DNA of 64,000 bases from Octopus sinensis (taxonomy: Eukaryota), in NCBI RefSeq assembly GCF_006345805.1, contig NC_043003.1, positions 109,740,001-109,804,000 on the forward strand, given 5' to 3'. The position numbers and the translations under genes were made by a program. The first letter of the stretch is position 1, and the number at the start of each line of letters is the position of its first letter. The notes beneath the pieces were generated by a model. The model worked only from the letters and a program-made list of their open reading frames with translations, made no database searches and was not told where the DNA came from. Of this stretch, positions 3,926-63,170 are shown in pieces.

Positions 3926-4218
3926 TTGATAAAACGGTAAGATAACAAAATAAAGAAAGAGACCTCAATATTATGTAAATAGAGGAAATTTATCTATACA
4001 ATAAGATGTTACTTTACTCGGTAGTCAAGATAAAACTCTGAGTTTCAGATGCCGAAGTGGAAATCCACAACACCATCTCTTCGGTTATCTGGTTAAATAG
4101 CCAGATTATCAGTTAAATAGCCAGATAACCGAAGAGATGGTGTTGTGGATTTCCACTTCGGCATCTGAAACTCAGAGTTTTATCTTGACTACCGAGTAAA
4201 GTAACATATTATTGTATA
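3926..4218. mobile_element. hammerhead-bearing fold-back element, family HH-A (Penelope pLTR-like)
   Basis: Arms 3995-4092 and 4121-4218 are inverted; each has GATAA-CCGAAGA-stem II-GAAA-CTCAGAG-TT-TTATC; flanked by (TA)n; relatives at 10232-10365 and 49440-49620. Confidence 0.75.
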
Positions 4219-4584
4219 TATATATATATATAATATATATATATATATATTATATATATATATATATATATATATATATATATTTAACAATTAAGGATAA
4301 CTTCTTAATAAGGAATCTTAACAAGAAATTATCAGGTAGATAGCGTGAAAAACCTCATAAGAGAAAAAATTCGAAAATAATTTATTTTTGGTAGAAATGA
4401 CTTATGTCCCTCTTAGTGTGAGGCATTTATGTGTAATAATGCCCTCTATATAATATATATATATATATACACTCAATATACATACAAACATACTTATATA
4501 TATACTTACACGCACACATATATATACAGATATATATATGTACATATACACACATATATATACAATATATGTATATGTATAAAA

Positions 4585-5745
4585 CTTAGATAAAAATTAG
4601 ATATGTTTCGGCCAAAGATTGGTCCAGGTCATGTCTAACTTAATAGCACCACCTGATAGGAAGGCATCCTCTCTCCTACCTTCCATCCAGTCTACAGGCG
4701 CACACTCAGAGCAGGCCCATACACGCGGGCCATTCTTGCTACATTCATTCATCTTTCAACGAACTTACTGGGTGACAGTGTCTCTCTCTCCAGCCTCACT
4801 ATCCTTTTCAGGTTGAACCTGAATCAATGAGGCCTTGGCCAAAGGGGAAGGTACCCGTTTTCAGCCCTTTCAATCGCGTCCACCATGCAATCTCTTTTGC
4901 CATAGCCACCTGAATGAGAAAAAGTGCCATTCATTCCCGGCTAAAGGAAGGAGACAGAGCGATCTTCACAATAGACTCGGACATTGGACGGATCCGTCCT
5001 ACACGTAAAAATAACTATTCGACAAAGCTCCACACGTCAGTAATGCGCGGACACGTACGAGGGCATTCAGAACGGTTTCATCGCTCTGCGTGCATTTCCC
5101 GTGCCTGTAGAGATTATCTCGAACCAGCATGCCCCCCCCCCCCCCCGGTAGCACTGCCAGACCAGAGATTTCTGGAAGTTACCCACAATTCCCGGCTCGA
5201 AAGTCCTCCGGAAGAGACCAGCCAGTTGATCGCCCTTGAAGCTCAGGACCTCCCCGAGTACGTCGTCGCTCTTGTCCTCCACTAATCCCCTATAGAACTC
5301 CAGGGTGGAACTTCCACCGACCGCATTGCCCGATAGGCCGAGGGCTGTGAACACTTAGAGAAACTCTAGGTGTCAAGCGCCCTGCTTTAGTCTACACCTG
5401 ATCCAGGATTGTAGCTCTGCCAAGGAGACGAGCTGCAGAAAAGAGCGTTCAACAAACGGTGACCACACCAGCTCACCGTTAGGGTATCGCAGCCTGAGCG
5501 CATGTCTGTGCATCGTCAGCCACGCAATGGGTGCTGACAACAAATGGATAGTCTGACAAGCGGTATTTGTCACCTCCACAGGAAGCGGAAGAGCCAACGT
5601 AGAAGCCCGTTCAGCCACGAAGCGGCCAAGGGACGACAGTCAGGCAGTAGTATATGGCGAATGTGATGTACGCATTCGCCTCCTCCGCCCGAACATTCAA
5701 AGACAGCTTCTTCTCGGCCCATTTCTGGGTGAGACTATCGAATAT
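4585..5745 (-). mobile_element. Tx1/L1-like LINE 3' fragment (post-RT and zf-RVT region), decayed
   Basis: FYRGLVE...FQKSLVWQCYRG, HALRLRY...VWSPFVERSFLQL; homologous to 25520-26135. Confidence 0.7.
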
Positions 5746-6049
5746 GTTATGCACTTCTAGTAACAATGCCTTTTCTAGCGTTGTTCTAGCTTTCAAATAT
5801 TGCCACACTCCTGGCTAAGAGAACAGACCAAAATTCATCCTGAGCAAGGCACCAGTATGTCACAAAATTACCCATTTACAAGTGAGGGGAATGAAAATCA
5901 AAACCGCCATCTTGATCCAAACGCTAACCACTTAGTCAAGTGCCTTCAAATATATGAATGTATAAGTACATTACATTTATATATATTCGGTGGACCAATT
6001 GATAAGGTACCGGTCTCCTAAGCCGGGTATTGCGGCTTTTCTTTTTATA

Positions 6050-6445
6050 GATGCGGGCGTGATTGTGTGGTATGAAGCTTGCTTACCAACCACATGGTCC
6101 CGGTTTAAGACCCACTTGGTAGCACCTTGAGCAAGTGTCTTCTACTACTGCCTCGGCCAACCATAATCTTGAGAGTGAATTTCTTTGGCAGAAACTAAAA
6201 CAGGCCTGTCATATATGTTTGTGTGTGTCTTTGTGTCTGTGTTTATCTCGCCTCCAACACTTGACGACAGGTGTTGATGTGTTTATATCACCATAAATAA
6301 GCGGTTTGGCCAGACAGACCGACAGAATAAGTACAAGACTTTAAAAAATAGAAGTACTGGGATCGATTCATTAGACTAAAAATTCTTCAAGGTGGTGCCC
6401 CAGTATGGCCACAGTCTAATGATTGAAACAAGTAAAAGAAAAAAG
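6050..6445 (+). mobile_element. SINE family B (tRNA-like head, CR1-like 3' tail)
   Basis: TGTGTGGT..GAAGCTTGCTTACCAACCACATGGT...CACCTTGAGCAAGTGTCTTCTAC...GGTGGTGCCCCAGTATGGCCACAGTCTAATGATTGAAACAAG. Confidence 0.8.
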
Positions 6446-6519
6446 ATAAGAAAATATGAATGTATAAATATGTATCTACGTAAGCATGTTCGCATATGGG
6501 CTTGTATTTTGCATGAGGA

Positions 6520-6718
6520 AGAGGGGCCTTGTCGAGTTATAAGTTCATAAATTTGGGAAGCCAGACCGTTCCAGGACTTCCCAATTTTGTTAACTGAGTG
6601 GACTGGAAATGTTTTTCTCAAGAATACAAGGGATCGCTCGGTTAAGGAATCGAAACCCTAATGAAACAATCATTTGCGTGATACCCACTATCCTAACCAC
6701 TAAGCCATGCAACTCCAC
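6520..6718 (-). mobile_element. SINE family C, degenerate
   Basis: Minus strand GTGGAGTTGCATGGCTTAGTGGTTAGG (A box)...GGTTTCGATTCC (B box). Confidence 0.6.
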
Positions 6719-60600: not shown

Positions 60601-61527
60601 CATTAACTAGAGAGGAACAGAGAAGAGGGAAGTAGGAGGAGGAGTGGCGACATGGTAGGAGGCAAGGAACAAAGGTGGTGGTGGTGGTAGTAGCGGTGTT
60701 AGTAGTACTGATGCTGGCACTGTTGATGTTATCGGTGGTTGTGGAGGCAGTGTTTGTGTGTGCATGCGCGTGTACGCGTGTGTGTACGCGTGTACGTATG
60801 TGTATGTGTGTGTGTGAGTGTGCGCGTGTGCGTGCGTGTACGTGTGTGTGTGTGTTTGTATGTGCGTTCGGCTGATGTTGGTTCGTAATAAAAGTGCGTG
60901 TGGTTGACATCGTAGCGGCAATGGTGGCGAAGGTTGCGTGTGTTTATGCATGGGTGTATGTGTTCGTGTTTGAGCATATGTGTTGATGGGAAAAGGGGGT
61001 GATGGTGGTTGTAGTGGTAGTAGTGGTGATATTAAAATTGGTGGCGTTACTTGGTGGCAATATGGTGATGGTAGCAATAGTGGTGTTGGTATGTTGTTGA
61101 GCGAACGATCTTCGTCCCAGGGCTCGCAAGATGGGAGAAGTCCGAAGCGTGGTCCTTTGCTATTCGTAAGACCCACAGAAGAGAAAGCAGGTCAACCCCC
61201 GACACCGAGAGCATCGGCGGATGGATGGAAAGAATTTGCCTGTTCTTTCTTGCTAGTTGATTGATAGCATGAAGATTCCCAGGTCAGTTCGTTGATGTAT
61301 CAGTTGCATTATGGACTATTATGGAATACATGCATGCATGTACATATAAAAATTTCATACAATGACATAAGGTAATAAGCACGCATGAGAAGCACTCTTG
61401 TTGATTTACTTTTAAATAACCGACTTGAGCTGCAACTAAAACAAAAGTGGTGCTGTAGTGGTCTGTAGCAAAGACTGGCTATAAGTGGTTCATCATTGAG
61501 TGGGTACATATATATATATATATATCA

Positions 61528-61794
61528 GACGTGATCACGTGACCGACCAGTCCATCATATGTAGTTACACATCGCTGGTCACAATGCGTTCGCATTGTTG
61601 TAGCCTTCGAATGACGCCACCCCGCTGGCTAAGCGAGCAGACCAACAGAAGGAAGAGTGGGAGAAAGAGTGGAGCCTCGTGGAGCTTTTAGGTGTTTTTG
61701 CTCAATAAACACTCACAACGCCCAGTCTGGGAATCGAAACCGCGATCCTACGACCGCGAGAGCCACTGCCCTAACCACTGGACCATTGCGCCTC
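61528..61794 (-). mobile_element. SINE with family C head and a different 3' body
   Basis: 61670-61794 is almost identical to 48060-48181; 61528-61650 differs from 47800-47990. Confidence 0.75.
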
Positions 61795-62475
61795 ACACAC
61801 ACACACACCACACCACACACCCACACCACCACACACATATATATATATATATATATATTATTATACATACATACATATATGTATATATATATATATATAT
61901 TATAATATACATATATATATATTATATACATATATATTATGTTCTAATTATAAATGACATGCGGTTGACCTTGTATTTGCTTGTTCAATGATTTTAGTTT
62001 GATATTTTTGTCTCTTCCAATAGAGCACTTCTATTGCAGTCCTATTGAACCTCTTTTTGTTCCTGACAAGAAACAATTATTGTATCGATACATATAGATA
62101 ATATAATATATATATATATATATATATATCTATATATATATATATATATTTTATTTATATATCTATATATATATATCTACCTATTATACCTATATATATA
62201 TGAGAATATATATATATATATATAGATATATATATCATATATTATATATATATATATATATATAATAATATATATCTATATATATATAATATATCTATAT
62301 ATATATATATATATATATATAGTAGAGTCCACAGTGATCCGTATGTAGGAGAGGTGCAGCCGGAGGGTAAATATCCAAACGAGAATCCTTAAAGGGCAGA
62401 TAAAGAATCCAGTGGAGAAGTTCGTAGTGGTAAGAAATGACAGGATCAACAGGTGCGACTACGGGAGCGTGTGAT

Positions 62476-62790
62476 ATATAGGGAGAGTTTACGAAAAAAA
62501 AAACCAAAAGAAGACAGGTGGTGTACAAAACAAACAGATGTATTAGTATAACGCTCAGGAATAGAAAAATCTTTTACGTTTCGAGCCTACGATCAATCAG
62601 TCGCCATGATTGATCATTAGCCACTACACACATTTTTTCTCTCCTTGTTTCTCTCCTTATTTTTTCTGTGTCCCTTTCTGTAGAATAGCGTGAAAGACTT
62701 TTTCTATTTCTGAGCGTTATACTAATACATTTGTTTGTTTTGTACACCACTATCTTGGTCTTTTGTTTTTTTTTCGCAAACTCTCCCTAT
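62476..62790. mobile_element. fold-back element, family HH-C'
   Basis: ATAGGGAGAGTTT.CGAAAAAAA...TATTAGTATAACGCTCAG is inverted at 62690-62790; hammerhead halves TTTTACGTTTCGAGCCTACG (minus) and CTTTCTGTAGAATAGCG (plus). Confidence 0.7.
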
Positions 62791-62814
62791 TAGGAAGAAG
62801 GGATGAACAAGCAG

Positions 62815-63170
62815 AACATAATTGCATTATTAGTGTAAACAAGATATTAAGAAATAATGCATAGAGTCTCTTACAGTTATTTCTAGAATAGCTGTGCCTA
62901 TGGTGCATAGATCATTGAACAAAGATTTCCATACAAACCAACTATTCCGTTGTGTGAGAGGAAGAATTAAGGAATACACTTAATAATAATGGGTATTAGT
63001 AGTTACCAGTTACATCGTCGAAGAATTAAGGAATATCCTTTGTAAAAATGGAAATCTTTGTTTAATGGACTATGCGTCATATAAACAGCTAGTCTAGAAA
63101 CAGCTGTAAGGGATTTTGTGCAGTCTTTCTTAATCGCTTATTTACTCTAACAACCCTGAGATTATGTTTG
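62815..63170. mobile_element. old imperfect fold-back with half hammerhead GAAA-CAGCTG-TA
   Basis: CTTACAGTTATTTCTAGAATAGCTGT...AACAAAGATTTCCAT is inverted against ATGGAAATCTTTGTT...ACAGCTAGTCTAGAAACAGCTGTAAG. Confidence 0.55.

Follow-up and report, generated by a model that had tools for sequence, protein, structure and literature searches.

What are the short repeats with hammerhead-like cores that recur, often folded back and set in (TA)n runs, along a 64-kb stretch of the Octopus sinensis genome (NC_043003.1, positions 109,740,001 to 109,804,000; the window), and how were they made? A first-pass annotation of the letters had read them as non-autonomous derivatives of Penelope-like elements (PLEs) or as retrozyme-like units. 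On sequence grounds, the stubs are pieces of the pseudo-long terminal repeats (pLTRs) of at least six PLE families, and many of them are probably run-off cDNAs, produced by internal priming near the 5′ end of the element's mRNA. The observations taken as established for this reading are the links to open reading frames (ORFs), the two 3′ ends, the identity of the sequence between these ends with the element's leader (families B and F), inversions that join a long to a short end, clustered 5′ ends, and the loss of an intron in family F. The genome that carries the window measures 2.72 Gb and contains many simple repeats. Positions are counted from the predicted hammerhead cut site unless stated otherwise, L-numbers denote loci fetched from elsewhere in the same genome, and papers cited by PMC number or DOI are represented here by the available parts of their text.

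All 12 coordinates listed by the annotation carry repeats as described, and 11 of them are pieces of six families. By similarity, family A comprises the loci at 3926, 10232 and 49440; B, those at 10451 and 56332; C, 17294; C2, 16555; D, 10060 and 62476; E, 18820; and F, 53104 (Table 1). The repeat at 62815 belongs to no family and has no relative among the compared loci. The layout is inverted in seven of the 12 loci, so that the "often inverted" of the annotation holds. No intact ORF of these elements is present in the 64-kb window; "short and non-coding" is right for the window copies but not for the families, which include ORF-bearing copies.

The stubs are identified as PLE pLTRs because longer copies join the same ends to ORFs for reverse transcriptase (RT) and GIY-YIG nuclease. 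Walking upstream from the family B stub leads through a 1.1-kb 3′ untranslated region (UTR) into an RT plus GIY-YIG frame, recovered in pieces of 499 and 587 amino acids. The same kind of frame was reached in four of 20 family A loci, in three family E loci and in family F. For C2, the leader, the ORF and the 3′ pLTR follow one another in that order in L274, and for D, L277 runs from an ORF related to the Neptune type through the UTR into the pLTR without a TA break; no ORF-bearing copy was found for family C itself among the fetched loci. Hence, the same tails were found at PLE ORF ends for A, B, E, F, C2 and D, and the derivation from PLEs that the annotation had proposed is upheld for them.

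Judged by their ORFs, A, B, E and F are assigned to the Hydra clade of PLEs. The RWK/DKT motifs were read in B (RLRWKA, NSDKTRN) and F (RIKWKA, SDKTRNLY), and a CxCX5C linker with CxxC and CxH, but without CCHH, was read in B (CNFKNESSC, with one Cys replaced; CKLC; CRH), E (CNCRPGTTC; CKLC; CNH) and F (CTCRDKSKC; CYLC; CRH). Relatives numbered 410 at E ≤ 1e-30, and Pfam gave no match for the two family B ORF pieces. Hydra-clade PLEs are described with a single ORF, a C-terminal GIY-YIG nuclease, the same motifs and lack of CCHH, a canonical hammerhead, (TA)n insertions, partial tandems, and inverted 5′-truncated copies with the tail at one end (PMC8557442); pLTRs from partial tandems, inverted 5′-truncated copies and the one-ended tail were all seen in the octopus families. 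The C2 and D ORFs are assigned to the Neptune type, and C is placed by the similarity of its pLTR to that of C2. Decayed C2-type ORF copies have the linkers CSRPRCRTVC and CSSSPCHTC, and the D-linked ORF, in which the linker region is deleted, is 77-82% like the C2-type ORF in DNA. Likeness to Neptune-type PLEs lies in the microsatellite targets, in a pLTR hammerhead whose stem III is CG, and possibly in a candidate CX2-5CxxC linker before GIY-YIG (read in decayed C2-type copies). Unlike those elements, C and D have a single 3′ end and are hardly ever paired head to head, and D carries CUGUAGA/CUGUUGA in place of CUGANGA. These are new Hydra- and Neptune-type families of a known class.

Two other assignments were rejected. 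Family A is not a 440-nucleotide (nt) short interspersed nuclear element (SINE) with a fixed 5′ end, since its copies run past an internal TA run into the ORF; nor is D the end of a young Neptune family at L106-L117, where D occurred in one of 18 copies or extensions checked. This young family, also present at L227, L228 (with a 751-amino-acid frame) and L275-L290, gave 13,330 candidates in a first look with its nuclease region; its 1.4-kb 3′ UTR ends near CA repeats, and the relaxed descriptor given below detected no hammerhead at the 3′ end of the family.

A strict first hammerhead descriptor gave no match in the window, since it tolerated no extra base beside stem II. A relaxed type I descriptor (CYG[AT]NGA, one extra base tolerated beside stem II) gave four motifs at three window loci (both arms of 3926, 10060 and 17294) against 0-1 in each of 30 local shuffles, a count that is not independent, the descriptor having been tuned on these loci. 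Applied to 60 evenly spaced stretches of 10 kb, an independent sample of 600 kb, it gave 24 matches against 0-3 in five shuffles. The Rfam scan showed no hammerhead family and no gathering-score match among the best 150 of 333 matches. Family majority sequences retain both boxes and the palindromic helix III. The helix III strand pairs with a second copy rather than with itself, at −1.7 to −10 kcal/mol (scored without family E), and the monomer folds of six cores were mostly no better than shuffles, as expected of dimer-type motifs. This supports, for the pLTR stubs, a minimal hammerhead of type I whose helix III is palindromic and which is predicted to be of the dimer type. Among the 12 window loci, the core is complete at three, mutated but recognisable at four (16555, 18820, 49440, 53104), and lost at four (10232, 10451, 56332, 62476) through truncation or deletion of the CUGANGA box or stem III, and 62815 has a half-motif; the common core of the annotation was thus found intact or mutated at the first two groups and not at the others. 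Natural variation of the core is found as well: in 9,577 exact cores of D, U takes the place of A6, the cores of this family reading CUGUAGA, CUGUUGA or CUGUGGA in thousands of copies, and the B core is without the G10.1-C11.1 pair.

Further hammerhead families, absent from the window, were met in the random sample (L161:9231 and 9777; L143:4783; L145:3863; L175:2534; L148:6694). The two L161 copies are identical and lie 546 nt apart; they are possibly a tandem retrozyme-like unit.

The families are abundant and partly very young. Exact cores number 9,577 in D, 6,207 in C and 4,958 in B genome-wide, all of them lower bounds, with none in reversed controls; the high copy number that had been supposed is real. 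The 600-kb sample held 22 family loci (A 0, B 3, C/C2 4, D 10, E 1, F 4), an average that the window exceeds about fivefold, and extrapolation from these 22 gives stub loci on the order of 100,000 for the genome. Family B copies are 95-100% alike, with arms of up to 3 kb at 99.5%. Of 364 family copies, 300 have a TA step within 10 nt after the 3′ end, against a background of 12%, and the preference for (TA)n is supported; the fixed 3′ tail described earlier stands as regards its run into (TA)n but not as one fixed point, there being two 3′ ends in the Hydra families.

Stubs of different families were also seen stacked in one (TA)n tract (L002, L009, L091, L172, L272, L296, and window 10035-10640 and 49360-49627), where each newer insertion uses the TA run beside the older one.

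The two 3′ ends lie at about +42/+109 in A, +37/+108 in B, +73/+213 in E and +110-120/+192 in F; C and D have a single 3′ end. In tandem copies of B (L229, L221) and F, the long end continues directly into the ORF start, and the "tail" is therefore the element's own leader. Among 89 rows of head-to-head copies, a few of them alternative pairings within one locus, 84 joined a long to a short end and none joined two long ends; when intron-less F copies were found by pattern alone, all 11 inverted loci were likewise mixed. Either arm of an inversion can be the longer, which argues against a simple fold-back of cDNA from a fixed first end. Per first 100 listed cores, 18 inverted pairs were counted in B, none in C and one, doubtful, in D; inversion is a Hydra-family trait. 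Homogenisation of the arms was considered and rejected, as arms of the same locus differ about as much per site as arms of different loci (A 0.113 vs 0.125; B 0.061 vs 0.058; E 0.055 vs 0.056; F 0.022 vs 0.029). Same-locus arms show a small excess of shared rare variants. Arm divergence does not tell one template from two.

The 5′ ends were read from incidental copies, that is, copies met in loci fetched for other reasons. Of 14 such copies in B, 8 start between −37 and −46; of 10 in C, 6 start between −106 and −110; and of 36 in D, 13 start between −91 and −100. Each of these clusters sits at an initiator-like word (TCATTC, TCAGTC or CCATTC). In 11 of the 18 B head-to-head pairs the cores are at most 55 nt apart, from which it follows that both arms start at about −40 to −46; in C, 2,945 copies were counted just inside the putative start. 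We infer that the clusters mark the start of transcription. That insertions start instead at the hammerhead cut, an idea suggested by L221 and L233, was rejected in all 30 B copies that hold the ORF start: none begins within 5 nt of the cut, and 27 read through an intact upstream hammerhead.

Three long copies of family F contain a GT-AG intron of 1,379-1,394 nt, which ends about five bases before hammerhead stem I. Short copies have lost it exactly, which shows an RNA step; 19 exact spliced junctions exist genome-wide, those of both 53104 arms and 17 more. When the putative +1 is placed 27 nt before the intron donor, the 19 spliced arms (16 loci) stop between −22 and +13, 17 of them between −1 and +13 and none beyond −30. 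All five unspliced copies with enough flank extend more than 100 nt upstream of the putative start (two more lie at contig ends), and spliced and unspliced copies differ in upstream reach with a Fisher p of 2.4e-5.

The following sequence of events is proposed. The transcript would start in the 5′ pLTR and pass through an optional intron, the hammerhead, the leader, the ORF, the long 3′ UTR and the second pLTR. The element's enzyme would nick (TA)n and prime at one or the other of two internal sites, both lying a short way downstream of the hammerhead. If it primes in the 5′ pLTR copy, synthesis would run off at the cap after 80-280 nt and leave a solo pLTR, spliced if the mRNA was spliced; two priming events at the two sides of a break, with one start site each, would leave a head-to-head stub. 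Long copies would arise when priming falls in the downstream pLTR copy of an RNA longer than one unit, and these would be 5′-truncated or more-than-unit copies with the intron kept, the unspliced intron of the downstream pLTR being the means by which it is maintained in the family. The template would mostly be uncut at the hammerhead, with cleavage occurring only as a dimer. For full-length copies, a circular template as proposed in PMC4209133 is possible. As a tentative extension, most solo pLTRs of endonuclease-bearing PLEs may be abortive run-off cDNAs from the capped, spliced 5′ end of the mRNA, with competent copies primed in the downstream, unspliced pLTR copy.

Several of these steps resemble known systems. 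It was reported that the anole Poseidon PLE cleaves and extends both strands of AT-rich DNA in vitro, that its reverse transcription begins at two internal sites bounding the tail, with no difference in start site seen between the strands, that uncut RNA is the main template, and that the enzyme is a predicted dimer (PMC11167929); its tail, the stretch between the two start sites, corresponds to the one described here. Penelope of D. virilis is like family F in its start site in the pLTR, its short first exon and an intron ending beside hammerhead helix I (PMC2377424, PMC4209133). The intron of F differs in length (1.39 kb vs 75 nt), and the intron-less genomic run-off copies and the strict long-plus-short pairing set the octopus elements apart from the available accounts of Penelope and Poseidon.

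A number of observations weigh against the run-off reading or loosen its basis. One spliced F locus extends to −16/−22, and the unspliced copy L407 also begins near the putative start. Exact unspliced F acceptors number 23, about as common as the 19 spliced junctions, and many F stubs therefore do not derive from spliced RNA. The D cluster adjoins the limit of the reference, though upstream sequences vary between copies; the incidental copies of A (n=8) and E (n=5) are too few for a cluster; and the initiator matches are only short words. The B copies with the ORF start have 5′ ends from −27 to beyond −1260, with three of 30 near the putative start. The tally of long-plus-short pairs is inflated in that the A and B loci were fetched with long-end queries. 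For D and for C2 a single complete copy makes the ORF link, and these copies are about 73-76% identical to the stubs of the window; C is without an ORF-bearing copy of its own.

Plain 5′ truncation is the alternative that survives best. Every stub would be the 3′ end of an early-dropped cDNA begun in the 3′ pLTR, as in long interspersed nuclear elements, and the 5′ clusters would be pause or microhomology sites. It fits the graded-length copies of up to several kb in A, B and E, the common unspliced F acceptors, and the B junctions, which often lie at a CTAG palindrome favouring annealing, but it leaves unexplained why intron-less F copies all end at one point, give or take about 25 nt, and those with the intron continue, as well as the tight C cluster. 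Some stubs are surely made in this way, and truncation probably accounts for a share of them beside run-off, with which it can coexist; as the replacement for run-off it is unlikely.

Also quite unlikely is that the stubs are self-propagating, non-autonomous solo pLTRs, that is, short masters with an internal promoter that are mobilised in trans like SINEs. This is most plausible for C and D, whose near-uniform units of 190-210 nt have 6,207 and 9,577 exact cores and for the former of which an ORF-bearing copy was not found; the Penelope promoter is internal (PMC2377424), and rotifer pLTRs act in trans (PMC3846280). The 97-100% identity of B and F stubs to ORF-linked or intron-bearing copies is contrary to it, as are 5′ ends that vary by 10-20 nt, with no single fixed master end, and the ORF-linked relatives of D and C2. 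A, B, E and F can accordingly do without the annotation's term "non-autonomous", since their stubs are continuous with ORF copies of the same family; for C and D the term is possible.

Retrozymes propagated through hammerhead-cut circular RNA, or miniature inverted-repeat transposable elements (MITEs) of DNA transposons, are very improbable: more-than-unit copies across an intact hammerhead fit the circular template of PMC4209133 and one full-length B arm (L221) starts at the cut site, but none of the 30 ORF-start copies begins at the cut, tandem arrays of a short unit are absent from the window, the fetched copies are solo or inverted with few direct pairs, and MITEs are ruled out by ends that are asymmetric, inversion centres that vary, parents linked to ORFs and the exact loss of an intron. 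Non-LTR retrozymes share with the stubs the short, non-coding form, the type I hammerhead and a relationship to PLE pLTRs, but the available text defines them by head-to-tail tandem units (bioRxiv 10.64898/2026.07.22.740005), whereas the copies here are solo or head-to-head and have ORF-linked parents. The retrozyme-like label was therefore dropped, for want of this tandem layout in the window; the annotation's own counter-hypothesis, terminal-inverted-repeat MITEs, was likewise set aside on the unequal ends, variable centres and exact intron loss.

It had further been suggested that fold-back transcripts would be long double-stranded RNA of relevance to RNA editing. The read-through RNA of 3927-4216 is predicted to form a 108-bp duplex (−182 kcal/mol), which agrees with the first part, though the same fold would bury the hammerhead. 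In genomic copies, which were top matches and hence biased to low divergence, sense-strand A>G changes per 1000 were not above T>C in A (10.3 vs 13.2), B (3.5 vs 6.0) and E (7.7 vs 10.1), and in F the two rates were about the same (5.8 vs 4.3). Nothing here supports a role of the repeats in the RNA editing of the host. Overall, what the annotation observed is partly confirmed, and its interpretation is partly supported.

Table 1. Repeats of the window with their predicted family assignment (window coordinates; long and short refer to the two 3′ ends)
Feature	Position	Strand	Description
Family A (Hydra PLE) head-to-head pLTR stub	3927..4216		left arm 3927-4092 (−), long end; right arm 4117-4216 (+), short end; complete hammerhead motifs, CCGAAGA core, at 4084 (−) and 4129 (+)
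Family D solo pLTR	10035..10207	−	core CTGTAGA (A6-to-U variant) at 10125; shortened 3′ end, no (TA)n behind
Family A fold-back, tail sequence only	10228..10362		both arms start 17-18 nt past the cleavage site; no hammerhead
Family B (Hydra PLE) fold-back	10452..10640		short end left, long end right; both arms start inside the ribozyme; no CUGAUGA box
Family C2 (Neptune-type PLE) internally deleted copy	16555..17110	−	5′ pLTR end and 5′ leader (17110-16858), then 3′ pLTR (16811-16555); core decayed
Family C solo pLTR within (TA)n	17293..17555	+	complete hammerhead motif at 17427 (CCGACGA, CG stem III)
Family E (Hydra PLE) 3′ piece	18820..19165	−	short end; CCGATGA core, CAGCTG stem III, damaged stem I
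Family F tail fragment	49360..49438	+	short end; absent from the first-pass list
Family A single pLTR stub	49443..49627	−	long end; CTGAAGA at 49594-49588; stem III mutated
Family F (Hydra PLE) head-to-head stub	53104..53585		left arm to 53373 (−), long end; right arm from 53379 (+), short end; 1.39-kb intron missing in both arms, junction 53396/53397 on +; AAAA replaces GAAA in both arms
Family B fold-back	56334..56526		short end left, long end right; right arm CTGATGA, deletion through stem III
Family D inverted pair	62476..62788		left arm begins within the ribozyme; right arm core partly deleted
Decayed inverted repeat	62815..63160		GAAA-CAGCTG-UA half-motif only; no (TA)n flank

Other repeats lie beside these stubs. 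Immediately left of the family A stub, at 3790-3860, there is a small perfect hairpin centred on (TA)n, with arms of about 30 bp. An old, broken Hydra-type PLE ORF remnant (35281-36945, +) is 24-39% identical to the family B protein, and no pLTR of a known family was found after it. A short remnant of a Neptune-type ORF N-terminus (18167-18467, −) has no link to the adjacent stubs. The sequence at 19165-19560 (−) was considered as the upstream continuation of family E and rejected, being a different repeat; this separate family, also seen at L252-L270 and with 1,280 first-look candidates, has its start behind runs of (TAA)n or (GAA)n and contains internal subrepeats, and it showed a hammerhead or ORF in none of 19 loci.

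PLEs were reported in Octopus vulgaris, without ribozyme analysis in the part of the report available (PMC13282606), and a literature search that lay mostly outside the subscription literature returned no account of octopus hammerhead PLE stubs or of spliced run-off copies. Beyond what the available parts of the cited papers describe are the long-plus-short pairing, the gathering of 5′ ends at initiator-like motifs that lie a little upstream of the ribozyme, and the intron-less F stubs that end at the putative start. In the available text of PMC8557442, the meaning of intron retention in PLEs was called unknown and inverted structures were listed as unexplained. If the abortive run-off reading is true, it would resolve the retention of the intron, and a two-subunit enzyme with one start site per side of the break would explain inverted pLTRs that are tailed at one end only. 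The spliced stubs that end at the start site and the long-plus-short rule amount to two sharp predictions for the existing anole PLE in vitro system, and the thousands of young insertions in this genome are a natural readout of PLE transposition, a process that is still poorly understood.

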